A DNA stretch of 11,213 nucleotides from Myxococcales bacterium (GCA_005777185.1 SXNL01000123.1:1-11213), one strand, 5' to 3'. Positions 216-5,961 are shown, counted from the stretch's first letter. Numbers and translations are program-made. Notes: a model not told the origin generated them from the sequence alone.

Positions 216-1139
216 ATGAGGCTTCGCCACGCTTTCTTCGTTTCGTTCGCCCTCGCGGTCGCCGTGGCGGGCTTCGCTTGCACCAAGGCCGATCCGCTCG
301 GCACGCCGACGGGCACGAGCTTCGACGGCGGGACCGAGCCGCCCTCGAAGAAGGACGCCACCGTGTTCGACCCAGGCGAGGCATCCGCGCCCACGCCCGA
401 CGCGGGGGCCAAGAAGGGGCAGGTCTATGCGCACACCGCGAGGACGCTGTACCTGTTCGAGCCCTACGCGAAGCAGCTGACGAAGGTGGGGGACTTCGAC
501 TGCCTCCCGGGCCCGGAGGTGATGATCGACATCGCCCTCAACGAGACCGGCGCGATGTACGGGACGACCAGCGACCTCGCCACCGACAAGGGACACTTCG
601 TCACCATCGATCCCATCTCCGCGAAGTGCACGACGAGGGGCGCCGTCGACTACTACCCGGACTCCCTCGGCTTCGTGCCAGCGGGGACGCTCGACGTGAA
701 GGAGGCGCTCGTCGGCTACGATGGCGAGTACTACGTCCGGGTCGACCTCGACACGGGCAAGATGACGGACATCGGGACGCTGAACCCGCCAGGCCCTGAC
801 GCGGGGACGCTGCACTACTCGTCGGGTGACATCGTCGCCATCATCGGCGACAAGGCGTACCTGACGGCAAACGACTCGGCCGACCTCGGGGACTACCTCC
901 TCGAGATCGATCCCAAGACGGGCCGCCGCGTGAAGGTCATCGCGCCACTCTCGACGCGAGAGCTGTGGGGCACCGGGTACTGGGGAGGAAAGATCTACGC
1001 GTTCTCCGGAGCCGGGCAGGTGCTGGAGGTGAACCCCGTCACCGGGGCGAAGTCGACCGTGGCGCAGATCGCCGTGCCCGACGGGGGCACTGGCTTCTAC
1101 GGCGCGGGCGTGACGACCCTGGCGCCACGTTCGCCCTGA
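216..1139 (+). CDS. Secreted or lipoprotein-like hypothetical protein with internal short repeats (possibly a beta-propeller fold)
   Basis: ATG at 216. The N-terminus MRLRHAFFVSFALAVAVAGFAC-TKA is a signal peptide with a Cys at the end of the hydrophobic core (relaxed lipobox). It has recurring (I/V)DPxTGxxxxV(G/I)-like segments (VTIDPISAKCTTRGAV, VRVDLDTGKMTDIG, LEIDPKTGRRVKVI, LEVNPVTGAKSTVAQI). Amino-acid composition is not Arg-rich, unlike the overlapping frames. TGA stop at 1137-1139. Confidence 0.6.
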   Translation: MRLRHAFFVSFALAVAVAGFACTKADPLGTPTGTSFDGGTEPPSKKDATVFDPGEASAPTPDAGAKKGQVYAHTARTLYLFEPYAKQLTKVGDFDCLPGPEVMIDIALNETGAMYGTTSDLATDKGHFVTIDPISAKCTTRGAVDYYPDSLGFVPAGTLDVKEALVGYDGEYYVRVDLDTGKMTDIGTLNPPGPDAGTLHYSSGDIVAIIGDKAYLTANDSADLGDYLLEIDPKTGRRVKVIAPLSTRELWGTGYWGGKIYAFSGAGQVLEVNPVTGAKSTVAQIAVPDGGTGFYGAGVTTLAPRSP

Positions 1140-1307
1140 CCTCGGCTTGAATAAAAGCCGGCCCGGGCAGATCCTTCCAGGATCGACCGCGTACAGTGGG
1201 ACGCGCACTCCCGCGCGCGACGGTTTCGAGAGGCCCTCGTGGAGGGATGGGCCCCGAGGATCGAGGTCGCGAGGGCTGACCCGTGCGCGATCCGGAGGTT
1301 TCATTCC

Positions 1308-2732
1308 ATGTCGAGGTGGTTCCAGAATGCACGTGTTCGCCGAGGCCTCGCCCTCGGCGCGGTCGTCCTCTCCACGGGAGGGCTCGTCCTCTACAAGGCG
1401 CCCGCGCAGGCGCACACGCCGTTCGCCCAGGTGATCGCATCGGGAAAGAACGTGCGGGAATTCTCGGGGCCGGGCGTGAAGGGGGCCATCTCGCTGTCGC
1501 ACGCCAAGGTGCTGTCGGGCACGCCGACGACCGTCTTCGCGGAGGTACGCCTGGCCGCGACGGCCGACGCGACCGATCGGCTGCGGGAGCGCGCGCCGAT
1601 CTCGATGGCGGTCGTGATCGACACCTCGGGCTCGATGAGCGGCGAGAAGATCGCGGAGGCTCGCCGCAGCGTGCTCAAGCTCGTCCAGGACATGCGCGAC
1701 GACGACGAGATCGCGCTGGTCCGCTACTCGGACACGAGCGAGCTCGTACAGTCCCTCGCCCGCGTCGGCCTCGTGCGAACCCAGCTCGAGCGGAAAATCC
1801 GCGATCTCCAGCCAGGCGGCGGCACGAACATCGCGCCCGCGATGAGCCACGGTAGGCGGGCGCTCGACGAGGCGTCCTCGGGGCGGGTGAAGCGGATCGT
1901 CCTCGTGAGCGACGGGCTCGACGCGACGCGGCAGCAGTCGGAGAGCGTGGCGCGATCGAGCTTCGAGAGCGGGATCACGGTGTCGTCGCTCGGGATCGGC
2001 CTCGACTTCGACGAGGGCTACATGGGCTCGGTGGCGATGAACGGCCACGGGAACTTCGCCTTCGTGAAGGACGGGGCCTCCCTCGCGCACTTCCTCAACA
2101 AGGAGCTGATCGAGACGTCCTCCACCACCGTCGAGCAGGCCCGCGTGAAGGTGCGCATCCCGCAGGGGTTCACGTTCGCGCGCTCGAGCGGCGCCGACGC
2201 GCGGGTCACAGGCGACGAGGTCGAGCTCGTGTTCGGCTCGCTCTTCGTGGGCGACGAGCGAAGGGCCATCGTCGAGCTCCGCGCGACCCTCCCCGAGGGC
2301 CGAGCCGCGGACCTCGGAGCGACCGTCTCCTGGACCCAGGTCGGCGGGAACCGGGCCTCGGTGGACGTCCCCACGCTCACGGTCCTCGCCGTGAGAAACC
2401 AGGCCGAGGTTGAGCGGGCGCGCGACGGTGCGGTGCTCGCGAGCGCCGTGAGCGTGCTCGCGTCCCAGCGTCAGCTCGAGGCCGCGGAGGCCTACACGCA
2501 CGGCGACCTCGACCGGGCCACGTCGCTCATCGATCAGAACGTGCGCGCGCTCGAGGAGGCCAAGGCGGCCGCTCCGATGGCGGCGGCGACCGCCCTCTCG
2601 AACCAGGCGGACTCCTACCGCAGCGCGAAGACGGGCTTCTCCCAGGCCGGCCCGGGGAGCGACGAGGGCCGGATGCGCGCGAAGGCGAGCGCCGCGCAGG
2701 AGATCAACAACCTCAGCCGGAAGGCGTTCTAG
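1308..2732 (+). CDS. Secreted von Willebrand factor type A (vWA) domain protein with complete MIDAS and a C-terminal helical extension
   Basis: ATG at 1308 preceded by GGAGG at 1294-1298. N-terminus MSRWFQNARVRRGLALGAVVLSTGGLVLYKAPAQA-HT is a signal peptide with an AXA cleavage site. The vWA core reads ISMAVVIDTSGSMSG (DxSxS MIDAS), ...GGGTNI (Thr), ...IVLVSDGLD (Asp). The longer ORF starts at 1239, but the RBS and signal peptide favour 1308. TAG stop at 2730-2732. Confidence 0.8.
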   Translation: MSRWFQNARVRRGLALGAVVLSTGGLVLYKAPAQAHTPFAQVIASGKNVREFSGPGVKGAISLSHAKVLSGTPTTVFAEVRLAATADATDRLRERAPISMAVVIDTSGSMSGEKIAEARRSVLKLVQDMRDDDEIALVRYSDTSELVQSLARVGLVRTQLERKIRDLQPGGGTNIAPAMSHGRRALDEASSGRVKRIVLVSDGLDATRQQSESVARSSFESGITVSSLGIGLDFDEGYMGSVAMNGHGNFAFVKDGASLAHFLNKELIETSSTTVEQARVKVRIPQGFTFARSSGADARVTGDEVELVFGSLFVGDERRAIVELRATLPEGRAADLGATVSWTQVGGNRASVDVPTLTVLAVRNQAEVERARDGAVLASAVSVLASQRQLEAAEAYTHGDLDRATSLIDQNVRALEEAKAAAPMAAATALSNQADSYRSAKTGFSQAGPGSDEGRMRAKASAAQEINNLSRKAF

Positions 2733-2734
2733 CC

Positions 2735-3664
2735 ATGCGCAAGATCGCGTTCCTCGTGGCCGCGGCGTGCGCCTTCGCGGCCACTCCGTACCTCAAGTAC
2801 CTCGGCGCGGTGCCCTCGGCGGTCGCCGCGGTGGGGCTGGGGATCGGCCTCGCCATGGCGGCCTCATCGGGCGCGTACGCGGTCTCGATCGCGGCCGGTT
2901 CGATCGGCGCGCTCGCGGCCGGGCTCCTGGCGCCGGTGTCGGGCCCCGCGTCGGGCGCGGTGTTCCTCGGCCTCGTCTTCGCGGAGCGCACGCTCCGCGT
3001 CCGCGGGAGGACGTCGCGGGCGCTCCACGTCCTCCTGGCGCTCGTCGGCGGCGCGATCGCCGGCGGGATCTCGAGCGCGTACGCGACCGCGAGCCTGCCC
3101 GTGATGGCCGTCGCCACGGTCGTCTGCTCCGTGCTCGTCGCGCTGCCGATGCTCGTCGACGCCGACGATCCGATCGCACACGCGCTGGATCAGGCCGCTT
3201 CGCTCGTCGCCGGCCGGAGCGCGTCGCTCCTCCACGAGGGCGCGGATCTGCGGCGCTCGACGCGCGAGATCCCGCTCGAGACGAGCCTCCACGCGCGCGT
3301 CGAGAAGACGTGGGCGGCCCTGCTCAAGCTCGCGGACGCCAGGGTGAAGATCGATCGCAGGCCACTGCCCACCGTCCCCCTCTCCCTCGCCGACGACACC
3401 TCCAGCGACGCCGCGCGATCGCCGGCCGACGCCGTCCTCGAGATGGTCGACGGGCGCATCGCCGAGCACGTGAAGGTGCTCGCCCGCGCCTACACGGCCG
3501 TGAACACCGCGAACGCCGCCCGGATCGGGCTCGACGACGCGGCCGTGAAGAGCGTCGCGACGGTCGGCGACAGCCTCGACGAGGTCAGCCGCACGATCGT
3601 GGAGGACGCGACCGAGGTGCCCCCGCTGGATCGCGAGCTCGCGCCGGCTCTCGGGAAGAGCTGA
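2735..3664 (+). CDS. Integral membrane protein (several N-terminal TM helices plus a cytoplasmic or periplasmic C-terminal domain), translationally coupled to the vWA gene
   Basis: ATG at 2735, only 2 nt after the vWA stop (TAGccATG), with GGAAGG 11 nt upstream. The N-terminal ~150 aa are strongly hydrophobic and Ala/Gly/Leu-rich (FLVAAACAFAA..., VGLGIGLAMAASSGAYAVSIAAGSIGALAAGLL..., VFLGLVFA..., LLALVGGAIAGGISSAYA..., VMAVATVVCSVLVALPML). The C-terminal ~150 aa are hydrophilic. Confidence 0.65.
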   Translation: MRKIAFLVAAACAFAATPYLKYLGAVPSAVAAVGLGIGLAMAASSGAYAVSIAAGSIGALAAGLLAPVSGPASGAVFLGLVFAERTLRVRGRTSRALHVLLALVGGAIAGGISSAYATASLPVMAVATVVCSVLVALPMLVDADDPIAHALDQAASLVAGRSASLLHEGADLRRSTREIPLETSLHARVEKTWAALLKLADARVKIDRRPLPTVPLSLADDTSSDAARSPADAVLEMVDGRIAEHVKVLARAYTAVNTANAARIGLDDAAVKSVATVGDSLDEVSRTIVEDATEVPPLDRELAPALGKS

Positions 3665-3750: not shown

Positions 3751-4917
3751 GTGACACGCAACCTGGTGGCGGCGATTTTACTGCATATTGCATGCATCGC
3801 CGGCTGCTCGAAGCAGGGCCTGATCGACGCCGCGATGATGAGCGCGCCTCGGCCGGAGCCGCCGGCACGAGCCGAGGTCGTGGTGGGCGAGCGCCGCTTC
3901 ACGCTCCTCGCGGGCGACGGGCATTGCCACGTCACCCCGCCAGACGCGCCCTTCCACGTGTCGCGCGACGTGGGGGCGGCCCTCGGGCTCGCGCGTGCAG
4001 AGCGCCTGGACTTCGTGATCTTCACGCCTCACGTGCGTGCGCGCTTCATGGCGGACCCCGAGCTTCGGGCCTCGTTCGTCGACGGCGCGCGCGTCCTCGA
4101 CCGCGAGCTGAGGGCGCTCGCCGCGACCGATGTCTTGCTGGTGCGCGGCTTCGAGTACACGGACCACATGTGGGGCCACGTCGGGTTCGCCTTCGGCGAC
4201 GAGACGCGCGCCCTCGAGGCCGCCGGAGACACCGGGGATCCGCGTCCGTTCTTCGAGGCCTACGTCGCCTCGGGTGGCGTCCTCACGCTGAACCACCCGC
4301 TCGTGTTGCCCCTCGATGGCGCGCCGTTCCACGAGGCCCGCGCCGACATGTCCTGGCGCGCGTTCACACGTCCCGCGCGCAGGCTCCCCGCGGACGTGGG
4401 CTGGCTCACCGCTCACGCCCACACGATCGAGACGTTCAACCTCGGCGTCTCCTTCCTCCGCGACCGGCTCCTCCGCGACGACCCGGAGGCGAGCTTCCGG
4501 GAGAACCACTTCCTGCTCGATCGCCAGATCCGCGCCCAGCGCCGCCGCCTCTCGTCGGTCGCCGGCTCCGACAGCCACGGGATGCATCTCCGCGCCGTGA
4601 TGTACGTGCTCGCCGACGCGCGCTCCACCGCGGACCTGCGGCGCGGGATCCTGGCGGGCCGCACCTGCGTGCGAGGGCCAGAGGCTTGCGTCGCGCAATT
4701 CCGGACGGACGGGCCCTGGCAGCCAGTGGGCAGCGCGCTCTCCTCGCCCCGCGCGCTCGAGATCGAGGCCCCCGCCGGCGCGACGGTCTACGTCGACGGC
4801 GTGAGACACGACGGCGCGAGCGTGCCGGCGCGCGCAGGCGTGTGCCAGGTGGTGCGTGTCCAGGTCGGACGGAGCATGTCGGGCCCGACGTACTTCAACT
4901 GCCCCTTCGTCACTTGA
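3751..4917 (+). CDS. PHP-domain (polymerase/histidinol-phosphatase-like) metal-dependent phosphoesterase with a lipoprotein signal peptide
   Basis: GTG at 3751 gives MTRNLVAAILLHIACIAG-C-SKQ, a textbook SPII signal with lipobox IAGC. An alternative ATG at 3835 would lose the signal. PHP motifs present: GDGHCH (HxH metal site), FTPHV, LNHP, GSDSHG (D.H). The in-frame sequence upstream of 3751 (ORF track 2767-) lies inside the membrane-protein gene in another frame and is Arg-rich noise. TGA stop at 4915-4917. Confidence 0.65.
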   Translation: MTRNLVAAILLHIACIAGCSKQGLIDAAMMSAPRPEPPARAEVVVGERRFTLLAGDGHCHVTPPDAPFHVSRDVGAALGLARAERLDFVIFTPHVRARFMADPELRASFVDGARVLDRELRALAATDVLLVRGFEYTDHMWGHVGFAFGDETRALEAAGDTGDPRPFFEAYVASGGVLTLNHPLVLPLDGAPFHEARADMSWRAFTRPARRLPADVGWLTAHAHTIETFNLGVSFLRDRLLRDDPEASFRENHFLLDRQIRAQRRRLSSVAGSDSHGMHLRAVMYVLADARSTADLRRGILAGRTCVRGPEACVAQFRTDGPWQPVGSALSSPRALEIEAPAGATVYVDGVRHDGASVPARAGVCQVVRVQVGRSMSGPTYFNCPFVT

Positions 4918-5815
4918 ACTGTACCGCGCCCGGCGCGGCCGCGTTGCTGAGCACCGCCGGGATCGTGTCCATGAGGACCTGCCCGTCGGTCGAGGTGATC
5001 CGCAGCGTGAGGCCGCCGGGCTGGAGGCCGACGCCATTCGTATCGATGAAGAAGTTGTAGTCTACACGTGGCATGTTCACGAAGGCTGCGCCCTTCTTGT
5101 ACTCGACCTTCGCGATCGGGACCCGATGGTTGCGGATCTGGATCGCGGTCCAGTACTGGGAGCTGCCGTCCTTGAAGAAGTAGCTGATGTTCCCGGTGAC
5201 CTCGCACGTGACCGCCTGCAGGGTGATGGGGACGATGCCCTTCACCTTGGGCGCGATCCTCTCGAAGCCTTGCGGGGAGAGGTCGATCGTGCTCCCGTCG
5301 CCGGCGCAGGTGGGACACGAGTCGACGACCCGCACGATGAGCTCCCCGAGCTCGCCGACGAGGCGGTAGCAGCCGCCACACACGGCGCTCGCGAGGTAGT
5401 CGGCCGTGTTCATCGCCGCGACGGTGTAGTACTGGCTCGCGGGAAGCTTGTCGTAGGAGCAGTGGCCGGTGCCGTCCGCCTCGACGTAGAAGGTCGCCTT
5501 GCCGTTCTTGATGGGGCCCAGCGTGCGGAGGCCACCGCTGGTGGAGCCGCTCGTCCCGCTGTCGCCGGACGCGCCGCTCGTCCCGCTGTCGCCAGACGCG
5601 CCGCTCGTCCCGCTCGTCCCGCTCGTCCCGCTCGTCCCGCTCGTGCCGGAGGCGCCGCTCGTGCCGGAGGCGCCGCTCGTGCCGGAGGCGCCGCTCGTGC
5701 CGCCCGACGTCGTCCCGACGTTGCCGGGATCGGCGGGCGGGCCGTCCTCCGCGCCACGGCAAGCGACGAACGCGAGGACGACCGAGGCGGTGGCGAGGAC
5801 GAGCGGATGACGCAC
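4910..5815 (-). CDS. exlX: Bacterial expansin (EXLX1/YoaJ-type: DPBB domain D1 plus CBM63-like domain D2) with lipoprotein signal and Thr/Ser/Gly-rich linker
   Basis: Strong similarity to B. subtilis EXLX1 as I recall it. STIDLSPQGFERIA matches GALDLSPNAFRKIG. GNISYFFKDGSSQYWTAIQIRNHRVPIAKVEYKKGAAFVNMPRVDYNFFIDTN matches GNFTYRIKEGSSRWWAAIQVRNHKYPVMKMEYEKDGKWINMEKMDYNHFVSTN. The C-terminal ...DTIPAV...GAVQF matches ...DTIPKL...GHVQF. A GTG at 5815 gives MRHPLVLATASVVLAFVAC-RG, a signal peptide ending in Cys. The maximal ORF instead starts at a GTG at 5917, adding 34 non-hydrophobic residues; that GTG has an AGGAG-like SD but overlaps the predicted sigma-54 promoter. TGA stop at 4910-4912. Confidence 0.75.
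   Translation of the reverse strand: MRHPLVLATASVVLAFVACRGAEDGPPADPGNVGTTSGGTSGASGTSGASGTSGASGTSGTSGTSGTSGTSGASGDSGTSGASGDSGTSGSTSGGLRTLGPIKNGKATFYVEADGTGHCSYDKLPASQYYTVAAMNTADYLASAVCGGCYRLVGELGELIVRVVDSCPTCAGDGSTIDLSPQGFERIAPKVKGIVPITLQAVTCEVTGNISYFFKDGSSQYWTAIQIRNHRVPIAKVEYKKGAAFVNMPRVDYNFFIDTNGVGLQPGGLTLRITSTDGQVLMDTIPAVLSNAAAPGAVQFK
5547..5700. repeat. Imperfect in-frame tandem repeats (27-bp unit x2, 9-bp unit gctcgtccc x4-5, 18-bp unit gctcgtgccggaggcgcc x3) encoding the (T/A/D)SG linker of the expansin
   Basis: Directly visible: gccgctcgtcccgctgtcgccggacgc / gccgctcgtcccgctgtcgccagacgc; then gctcgtccc repeated; then gctcgtgccggaggcgcc x3. On the minus strand this translates to GTSGASGTSGASGTSGASGTSGTSGTSGTSGTSGASGDSGTSGASGDSG. 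Confidence 0.8.
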
Positions 5816-5833
5816 GCCGGTAGTGTATTCGTT

Positions 5834-5849
5834 TGGCGCGCCCGCGCCA
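5834..5849. promoter_or_regulatory. 16-bp palindrome TGGCGCG-cc-CGCGCCA about 70 bp upstream of the candidate -24 element; possible enhancer-binding-protein or regulator site
   Basis: Arms tggcgcg (5834-5840) and cgcgcca (5843-5849) are exact reverse complements. Position relative to the sigma-54-like element matches typical bEBP upstream activator sites. It lies in the divergent intergenic region if the expansin starts at 5815. Confidence 0.2.
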
Positions 5850-5911
5850 TTCTGGATGCAGCTCTGGGCGCCTGGTCCCTGGAAATCGGCCCGTTTCGCA
5901 CCTACGTGAGG

Positions 5912-5927
5912 TGGCACGGGAGGTGCT
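5912..5927 (+). promoter_or_regulatory. Candidate sigma-54 (RpoN) -24/-12 promoter for the MVP-homologue gene
   Basis: TGGCACG (5912-5918) - GGAG - GTGCT (5923-5927) against the consensus TGGCACG-N4-TTGCW. The GG (5913-5914) and GC (5925-5926) have the exact N10 spacing. The predicted TSS near 5938 gives a ~24-nt leader containing the SD GAAGAAGGAG (5946-5955) before the ATG at 5962. Confidence 0.35.
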
Positions 5928-5961
5928 CCTCGCGGGGCGTCTCTCGAAGAAGGAGCCCGCC

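Follow-up and report, generated by a model that had tools for sequence, protein, structure and literature searches.

Which of two GTG codons opens the expansin gene on the minus strand of an 11,213-nt stretch of DNA from a Myxococcales bacterium (GCA_005777185.1, SXNL01000123.1:1-11213; hereafter the window, with a GC content of ~70%), and what sort of protein does this gene specify? In its longest form the open reading frame (ORF) runs from 5917 to 4910 (–) and is 335 residues long; it is present, and it translates as described in an earlier note on this DNA, which had read it as an EXLX1-type expansin lipoprotein with an ambiguous start. Our analysis leads us, with high confidence, to the view that 4910..5815 (–) encodes a 301-residue precursor, an EXLX1-family bacterial expansin of a member of the Myxococcota. 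The gene is an ordinary member of the expansin family, whose proteins attach to cellulose and loosen it without cleaving the chains, and its membrane-anchored form is already known as typical of myxobacteria. Throughout the text, residue numbers refer to the 301-residue form, and residue conservation was scored across 29 aligned family members.

A two-domain expansin module

The coding sequence and the two domains of the module are located as follows.

4910..5815, minus strand: revised expansin coding sequence, 301 codons plus a TGA stop (4912..4910), with the start GTG at 5815..5813
5207..5503, minus strand: expansin domain 1, double-psi beta-barrel, residues 105-203 (Pfam DPBB_1, YoaJ alignment, model confidence mostly >90)
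4913..5206, minus strand: expansin domain 2, carbohydrate-binding beta-sandwich of the CBM63 type, residues 204-301 (YoaJ alignment, NF041144, AlphaFold2, Foldseek)

The expansin identity of the ORF sits in its C-terminal 197 residues. The match to the NCBIfam model NF041144 (expansin_EXLX1) covers the whole profile (positions 1-194 of 194) and scores 204.4 bits against a cutoff of 100 (E 1e-60). Among sequences of the PDB the expansin matches range from E 1e-42 to 5e-18 and are headed by a Streptomyces protein (9ms5; E 1e-42, 40% identity), followed by B. subtilis YoaJ/EXLX1 (2bh0; E 6e-31, 34% identity), by a Xanthomonas protein (9MS4; E 4e-30) and then by Clavibacter and fungal expansins; the comparison with the EXLX1/YoaJ structures that the earlier note had proposed as a check returned, in other words, a significant match, far beyond chance. 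In Pfam, DPBB_1 is above its cutoff (29.9 bits vs 28.8) and Expansin_C taken alone is sub-threshold (14.5 bits), while the two-domain NCBIfam model spans domain 2 fully. All of the motifs that had been quoted for the two domains are present, namely KATFY...AVCGGC...IDLSPQGFERIAP in domain 1 and GNISYFFKDGSSQYWTAIQIRNHRVPIAKVEYKK...VDYNFFIDTN...DTIP...VQF in domain 2, and in both domains they align column for column with YoaJ/EXLX1.

The same picture emerges from structure prediction. An AlphaFold2 model built with 29 family members as input has a predicted local distance difference test score (pLDDT) mostly >90 over residues 100-301, and Foldseek aligns both domains of this model to 9ms5, 3d30, 9ms4 and 4jcw with target-normalised template modelling (TM) scores of 0.86-0.91 (Streptomyces 0.91, Bacillus 0.88, Xanthomonas 0.88; plant beta-expansin EXPB1 0.69). 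The architecture found is that of an N-terminal double-psi beta-barrel (D1) followed by a C-terminal CBM63 beta-sandwich (D2), and the earlier assignment to EXLX1-type expansins with both domains is borne out by profile (204 bits), sequence (YoaJ, E 6e-31) and predicted fold (TM 0.88-0.91).

The roles of the functional residues of EXLX1 are taken here from a review (PMC5072189), in which Asp82 is essential for wall-loosening activity and Thr12 and Asp82 form a conserved pair of domain 1. Their counterparts in the window protein are listed below.

T108: equivalent to T12 of EXLX1, domain 1, invariant in the 29 sequences
D165: equivalent to D71, domain 1, invariant
C167: equivalent to Y73, from which it differs; lies within the motif VDxCPxC (here VDSCPTC)
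D178 (codon 5284..5282): equivalent to D82, domain 1, invariant
K215: equivalent to K119, domain 2, >=90% conserved
Y221: equivalent to W125, domain 2, aromatic character kept with Trp replaced by Tyr
W222: equivalent to W126, domain 2, invariant
Y253: equivalent to Y157, domain 2, >=90% conserved

Because these residues align with those of EXLX1, both the wall-loosening Asp and the glucan-binding aromatic platform are present. The window protein shares with B. subtilis EXLX1/YoaJ (PDB 2BH0, 3D30, 4FER) the same two-domain fold (TM 0.88 for the model), 34% identity, the residues T12, D71, D82, K119, W126 and Y157, and a domain 2 that corresponds nearly motif for motif. It differs from EXLX1 in having Cys and Thr within VDxCPxC in place of Y73 and E75, Tyr in place of W125, six conserved Cys and a mildly acidic module (pI 6.1), whereas EXLX1 is basic (PMC5072189). 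The six module Cys are invariant in the 29 sequences, five of them lying in domain 1 and the sixth, C204, opening domain 2, a pattern that suggests disulfide bonding outside the cytoplasm. The best solved relative is Ss_EXLX1 of Streptomyces sp. (PDB 9MS5; E 1e-42, 40% identity, modelled TM 0.91), which has the DxCPxC motif and the SS(Q)(Y/W)W...RNHR core of domain 2 in common with the window protein; 9MS5 is, however, actinobacterial, and its crystallised chain is without the lipobox and the Gly/Ser/Thr tether that are both found here.

Membrane anchoring, predicted mechanism and substrate

Upstream of the module, the precursor carries three N-terminal features.

5762..5815, minus strand: signal peptide MRHPLVLATASVVLAFVA, residues 1-18, with a positive n-region (R2) and an uncharged h-region
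5759..5770, minus strand: lipobox F-V-A-C; the Cys19 codon (5761..5759) specifies the predicted lipidated first mature residue
5504..5758, minus strand: predicted disordered linker, residues 20-104 (85 residues), 30% Gly, 23% Ser and 16% Thr, pLDDT ~50

The lipoprotein signal was evaluated with a scripted rule of the PROSITE PS51257 type, which asks for a lipobox [LVI..][AST..][GAS]-C with the Cys at positions 15-35 and a Lys or Arg within the first seven residues. The sequence MRHPLVLATASVVLAFVA|C passes (Cys19, Arg in the first seven residues, uncharged h-region), and Cys19 is invariant across the aligned family, in agreement with the lipoprotein signal claimed earlier. Relatives were collected by scanning one genome per species, which yielded at least 585 of them, and comparisons of related loci are based on the best 80: a lipobox is found in ~69 of these 80, a clean lipobox together with a measurable linker in 56, and equivalent signal peptides in 56-70. 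On the strength of the sequence rules and of this conservation, Cys19 is predicted to be lipidated and the signal peptide to be removed by signal peptidase II.

The earlier note had drawn attention to the fusion of the expansin to a lipoprotein signal and a long, flexible Thr/Ser/Gly tether. Both elements are there, and flexibility of the tether agrees with its composition and its pLDDT of ~50; the fusion is not special, since the architecture is the norm of the clade. Most of the 80 related loci combine a lipoprotein signal with an EXLX module, the linkers being rich in Ser, Gly, Thr and Asp, and the succession of lipobox, Ser/Gly/Thr linker and module is what Myxococcota expansins usually show and is already published. 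In this respect the window protein resembles the lipoprotein expansins of Myxococcales, Xanthomonadales and Burkholderiales, as summarised in PMC10501053, according to which about one third of diderm expansins, including those of soil-dwelling Myxococcales, have lipoprotein signals (de Sandozequi et al. 2022, Protein Sci 31:e4315). It departs from EXLX1, which has an ordinary secretory signal and no linker, by its lipobox and its 85-residue Gly/Ser/Thr tether, and from the known lipoprotein expansins by an identity of at most 58%, by Arg rather than Gly at position +2 and by a linker among the longest: the Cys and the first conserved Thr of domain 1 are 89 residues apart, the median of the relatives being 33, and the window ranks 52nd of 56.

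As for the destination of the protein, which the earlier note took to be the cell surface, a lipobox alone cannot tell the surface from the inner membrane or from the periplasmic face of the outer one. In M. xanthus, Lys at +2 means retention in the inner membrane and Ala at +7 export to the matrix (PMC3222651), and for E. coli lipoproteins a disordered linker at the N-terminus favours delivery to the outer membrane by the Lol system (bioRxiv 10.1101/2021.01.05.425367). The predicted mature N-terminus of the window protein is CRGAEDGP, with Arg at +2 and Gly at +7; because it lacks a Lys at +2 and has a long disordered N-terminal linker, Lol-dependent targeting to the outer membrane is likely by analogy.

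The following sequence of events can be proposed. Transcription from a promoter with the –10 element TACACT, located 6 nt upstream of GTG 5815, would give a leaderless mRNA, and the 18-residue signal peptide with its lipobox would route the precursor to the Sec pathway, to lipidation at Cys19 and to signal peptidase II. The mature lipoprotein would be passed to the outer membrane by the Lol system, where it may stay periplasmic, be flipped to the surface or be shed into matrix or vesicles, and the 85-residue tether would let the two-domain module reach away from the membrane. There, domain 2 would bind flat on beta-1,4-glucan chains through Y221, W222 and Y253, together with K215, and domain 1 would present the pair T108-D178 (T12-D82 of EXLX1) needed for non-hydrolytic loosening of the wall. 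Non-hydrolytic wall creep, weakening of filter paper and cellulose binding are the activities predicted from family membership, and the most likely role would be that of helping a soil saprophyte or predator to adhere to, and to open, cellulosic plant debris.

Several observations weigh against parts of this proposal. Tyr73 of EXLX1, thought to position Asp82, is replaced by Cys167, so that no aromatic residue is found at this position; since 9ms5 also has Cys there and the VDxCPxC motif is invariant in the clade, the sequence comparison identifies Cys167 as a clade variant and no disqualifier. At position +2 the protein has Arg, while 35 of 56 relatives have Gly, and the combination of +2 Arg and +7 Gly fits neither of the sorting rules of M. 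xanthus. The leaderless start, described below, is predicted from conservation, and a sigma-70 scan requiring 9 of 12 matches found no promoter around the gene, the –35 region being weak. No gene for a carbohydrate-active enzyme, cellulases included, lies near the expansin in the window, and the literature consulted yielded no experimental work on myxobacterial expansins. Finally, cellulose need not be the substrate, as EXLX1 has a strong affinity for peptidoglycan too (PMC5072189).

This last point leads to the best of the alternatives, in which the protein would be a periplasmic or envelope-facing lipoprotein acting not on plant cellulose but on peptidoglycan, either that of the cell itself, for example during spore formation, or that of its prey, or else on its own exopolysaccharide matrix, with the tether reaching the wall layer from the membrane. 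EXLX1 binds peptidoglycan very tightly and its loss lowers induced autolysis, and the fold of domain 1 is shared with lytic transglycosylases such as MltA (PMC5072189); homologs bear the JGI label 'expansin (peptidoglycan-binding protein)'; expansins are near-universal in a phylum of predators that are not plant associates; the window is devoid of nearby cellulase genes; and the basic Arg at +2 could, by analogy with Lys, favour retention in the inner membrane. We nevertheless consider this alternative quite unlikely, as the cellulose-binding aromatic platform and the equivalent of K119 are conserved, all bacterial expansins assayed so far act on cellulosic walls, and deletion of EXLX1 leaves peptidoglycan composition and cell morphology unchanged (PMC5072189), and many myxobacteria live on decaying plant matter (bioRxiv 10.1101/637728).

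The translation start and the upstream region

Only two in-frame start codons, GTG 5917 and GTG 5815, lie upstream of the lipobox Cys. The features on which the choice between them depends are the following.

5816..5917, minus strand: the 34 codons by which the longest ORF extends upstream, judged non-coding; they belong to the 146-bp intergenic region (5816..5961) between the divergent genes
5912..5927, plus strand: sigma-54-type –24/–12 promoter TGGCACGGGAGGTGCT, matching TGGCAC-N5-TTGCW at 15 of 16 positions, with GG and GC 10 nt apart
5827..5822, minus strand: –10-like hexamer TACACT with a 6-nt spacer to GTG 5815; predicted promoter of a leaderless or near-leaderless mRNA

Initiation at GTG 5815, giving a product of 301 residues, is well supported by codon statistics, the lipoprotein rule, the relatives, the intergenic spacing and the origin of the upstream GTG in a promoter read backwards, five lines that we count as independent. 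In the extension, the GC content at third codon positions (GC3) is 0.65 and codon log-odds average –0.44 bits, values exceeded by each of the 3,241 in-frame 34-codon windows of the local genes (minima 0.74 and –0.43, respectively); from 5815 downstream, GC3 is 0.84-0.95. The extension also contains codons that are very rare locally (AAA 2, AAT 1, ACT 3, GTA 5, GAA 7). When both N-terminal variants are submitted to the lipoprotein rule, the 301-residue form passes and the 335-residue form, with its Cys at 53 and no Lys or Arg in the first seven residues, fails both position rules. Database homologs and related loci open with a similar short signal peptide, and the spacing to the divergent gene is 146 bp with the short form and 44 bp with the long one. 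Comparison of the extension with the upstream region of the syntenic locus L001 (Labilithrix sp.) revealed no similarity; conservation of the start was judged on such more distant syntenic orthologs because no close relatives were found. The preference for GTG 5815 that had been expressed earlier is confirmed by codon statistics, lipobox rule and the short N-termini of the relatives.

That the longest ORF is real, with translation starting at GTG 5917 and a 34-residue hydrophilic extension preceding the signal peptide, would be suggested by the sequence GAGGAG, a Shine-Dalgarno (SD) motif 8 nt upstream of GTG 5917, when GTG 5815 has none; gene callers that favour the longest ORF would choose GTG 5917, and several database relatives (for example P0003, P0022 and P0026) are annotated with similarly long N-termini. 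Set against this are the codon statistics of the extension, lower than those of every coding window, its locally very rare codons, the failure of the lipoprotein rule, the mere 44 bp left between the divergent genes and the absence of conservation in L001, so that we regard a start at 5917 as very unlikely.

Moreover, both GTG 5917 and its SD can be accounted for by the opposite strand. The element TGGCACGGGAGGTGCT is the sole site with at most one mismatch in the window, where 0.08 are expected, and lies 35 nt upstream of ATG 5962 of a Major Vault Protein homolog, whose own SD is AAGGAG at 5950..5955. GTG 5917 is the reverse complement of CAC in TGGCAC, the –24 element, and the GAGGAG at 5931..5926 taken as SD overlaps the –12 element and the 3' end of the promoter on the opposite strand. 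On this sequence evidence, the apparent SD and GTG 5917 are a sigma-54 promoter read backwards. The SD that had been described as reasonable is accordingly only the other strand of a promoter; of the overlap with a sigma-54 element mentioned in the earlier note, the element itself stands at 5912..5927, but it belongs to the divergent neighbour on the plus strand. A role of this element for the expansin was considered and rejected, the site being on the plus strand and directed away from the expansin gene, and two sigma-54-like strings noticed by eye on the minus strand were discarded as their GG-GC spacing is wrong and a 3-mismatch scan did not pick them. Among the homologous vault-gene loci, L057 has a 2-mismatch site directly upstream (11223-11238, –), and L001 a 3-mismatch candidate seen by eye only. 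A search for activator-binding inverted repeats near the sigma-54 site found weak repeats only, inside the expansin coding region.

The absence of an SD between TACACT and GTG 5815 directs attention to the hexamer itself. In 70 related loci the start of the signal peptide could be located by lipobox and n-region, and in 38 of them a TANNNT hexamer (for example TATACT, TATCCT, TATGCT or TATAAT) stands 4-10 nt, mostly 6-8 nt, before the start, against a background of 1.06% computed over all ATG and GTG triplets of the same 70 loci (binomial P ~6e-56). This conserved geometry of –10 element and start codon is the one expected if transcription begins at the start codon, for which reason the expansin mRNA is probably leaderless or near-leaderless. 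A different arrangement is seen in the Archangium/Vitiosangium loci (L012-L017, L021 and L026), where TACACT is placed ~33 nt upstream, with a GAGGAG SD after it; from their sequence, these expansin genes are leadered and not of the leaderless type. A scan for intrinsic terminators around the gene found just one weak terminator-like hairpin, inside the start region of the neighbour, and nothing relevant was found in the literature on transcription starts or leaderless mRNAs of Myxococcus.

Similar arrangements were noticed at two other genes of the window, both without an SD and both encoding predicted lipoproteins: ATG 216 (+), preceded by TAGAGT-6-ATG (MRLRHAFFVSFALAVAVAGFAC...), and GTG 3751 (+), preceded by TAGGAT-7-GTG (MTRNLVAAILLHIACIAGC...). 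The two genes appear to head their own transcription units, and leaderless-type starts may be common in this genome.

The tether repeats, the neighbourhood and the inheritance of the gene

Within the linker, one further feature deserves separate treatment.

5540..5701, minus strand: an unbroken run of 18 Gly-X-Ser triplets (residues 39-92), whose DNA is made up of nested tandem repeats

Tandem Repeats Finder identifies an 18-nt unit repeated 3.7 times with 100% identity (5637..5702) and a 27-nt unit repeated 4.5 times (5546..5666). The perfect identity of the 18-nt copies points to a recent expansion of the linker by tandem duplication, and linker length is probably polymorphic between strains. 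That this tract forms a bacterial collagen-like triple helix, trimerising the expansin on a rigid stalk, is hardly credible in spite of its 18 uninterrupted Gly-X-Y triplets, a Pfam Collagen score of 27.5 bits against a cutoff of 27.2 and sub-threshold matches to the Scl1/Scl2 adhesin models and to PDB collagen chains, as the triplets are without proline and contain only two charged residues (2 Asp), no trimerisation domain appears among the Pfam and NCBIfam profile matches, the AlphaFold2 model predicts no regular structure here (confidence ~50), the tracts of the relatives are shorter and often off the triplet register (0-7 triplets in most, 12 in one) and the periodicity follows trivially from duplicated DNA units of 9, 18 and 27 nt. 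Known bacterial collagens depend for their stability on Pro or on charge pairs, and neither a Pro- or charge-rich Gly-X-Y tract nor a trimerisation domain is found in the window protein; the Pfam Collagen match, 0.3 bits above its cutoff, was therefore set aside as an artefact of periodicity.

The genes of the window, called by GC3 phase and Pfam, are arranged as follows.

216-1139, plus strand: DUF6923 lipoprotein
1239-2732, plus strand: VWA protein
2735-3664, plus strand: hypothetical protein
3751-4917, plus strand: lipoprotein weakly similar to CehA/McbA-type metallohydrolases, 388 residues (52 bits vs a cutoff of 80)
4910-5815, minus strand: expansin
5962-8007, plus strand: Major Vault Protein homolog
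8012-10171, minus strand: S9 prolyl oligopeptidase
10156-10668, minus strand: histidine phosphatase
10758-11213, minus strand: C-terminus of RecA (the window ends inside the gene)

A conserved neighbourhood of genes for envelope or secreted proteins is recognizable in ~15 Polyangia loci (L001-L011, L018, L019, L022, L027 and L032), with the S9 prolyl oligopeptidase upstream of the expansin and, downstream and convergent, the hypothetical, VWA and DUF6923 genes, the neighbours being 40-62% identical at the protein level. Because the same neighbours are found on both sides, these loci are, as judged from gene order, positional orthologs, despite an expansin identity of just 49-56%. Orthologs such as those of L001 (a metagenome-assembled genome, MAG, of Labilithrix sp.), L002 (Myxococcales bacterium 68-20) and L022 (Labilithrix luteola DSM 27648) share with the window the S9, hypothetical, VWA and DUF6923 flanks, and the syntenic Polyangia orthologs also have the lipobox and, immediately ahead of their GTG or ATG start, the –10 hexamer; in L001, in addition, a Major Vault Protein homolog separates the S9 peptidase from the expansin. 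They are distinguished from the window by their divergent expansin (identity 49-56%), by shorter linkers, by the absence of the vault gene from most of them and of the 3751..4917 gene from all. Synteny places the source of the window nearest to Polyangia, in the Labilithrix/Polyangiaceae group.

The best 80 of the at least 585 relatives belong almost entirely to the Myxococcota (Labilithrix, Polyangiaceae, Archangium, Nannocystis, Myxococcus, Kofleriaceae). The highest identity to any protein or locus found is at most 58%, the best of the genome scan being 56%, and in a collection of 15 billion sequences the exact protein is not present in either start form. Half of the matches to the full ORF in the protein search were collagen-like and of low complexity, the usable relatives being P0001-P0030, and a metagenome scan returned two expansin relatives only, of 46% identity, and three matches limited to the repetitive linker. 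Given the lack of anything closer in the collections searched, the source lineage may be poorly sampled.

The earlier note had framed bacterial expansins as sporadically distributed and usually explained by horizontal transfer, a description that does not apply here: besides the distribution of the relatives and the synteny just described, an expansin is present in 22 of 26 sequenced myxobacteria, and its acquisition has been placed before the diversification of the group (bioRxiv 10.1101/637728). The GC3 of the expansin gene (0.94) equals that of the neighbouring genes, and on account of conserved synteny and native codon usage the gene looks vertically inherited in this lineage and not recently transferred. 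A recent transfer, which a dip in GC content (0.65, 5001-5500) could have indicated, was rejected, the dip arising from codon positions 1 and 2 while GC3 is 0.94 and synteny is kept. Three close expansin relatives (L036, L047 and L053) occur in MAGs labelled Acidobacteriota, Bacteroidota or Chlorobi and could be binning errors or transfers out of the Myxococcota; for L036 mis-binning is favoured because the conserved hypothetical neighbour is also present.

Some further observations concern the neighbours. The Major Vault Protein homolog at 5962-8007 (+) has 681 residues and matches Pfam MVP_shoulder (97 bits), Vault_3 and Vault_4; among the 80 expansin loci a vault homolog is found only in L001 and in L057, where it lies ~3 kb away (for bacterial homologs see bioRxiv 10.1101/872010). 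None of the 80 related loci contains an equivalent of the gene at 3751-4917, which gives the impression of having been inserted, in this lineage alone, next to the expansin and the conserved hypothetical gene that flank it. At its 3' end this gene runs 8 nt (4910-4917) into the convergent expansin gene, and no terminator was detected there. The histidine phosphatase ORF overlaps the start of the longest S9 ORF (10171) by 16 nt. Over the opening 34 codons of the S9, VWA and 3703-start ORFs GC3 is 0.76, and this low value suggests that the starts of these longest ORFs are over-extended as well. Neither the Rfam scan nor the tRNA scan of the window gave a match.

For annotation, the outcome is a product of 301 residues from GTG 5815 in place of the longest ORF; what the analysis adds is this resolved gene model, the explanation of the upstream GTG and SD by a sigma-54 promoter read backwards and the conserved pattern of a –10 element before the start. 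Knowledge of expansins is otherwise unchanged, the architecture having already been described for the phylum, and a family that attracts biotechnological interest for the processing of cellulose gains a divergent sequence (at most 58% identity). Where a high-GC genome has divergent promoters, the trap of an SD and GTG arising from a promoter read backwards will probably be met again, and a –10 box directly before the start is a pattern that could help gene calling for myxobacterial envelope proteins. Two broader proposals, which we consider rather unlikely, are that Myxococcota in general express their expansins from leaderless mRNAs, often GTG-initiated, driven by a –10 box set before the signal peptide, and that the tethered expansin acts on a non-plant polysaccharide, such as the peptidoglycan of the prey or of the cell itself or the exopolysaccharide matrix. 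If true, leaderless translation would be a conserved and so far undescribed mode of expression for this envelope protein, and a non-plant substrate would explain why expansins are retained almost universally in a predatory phylum.

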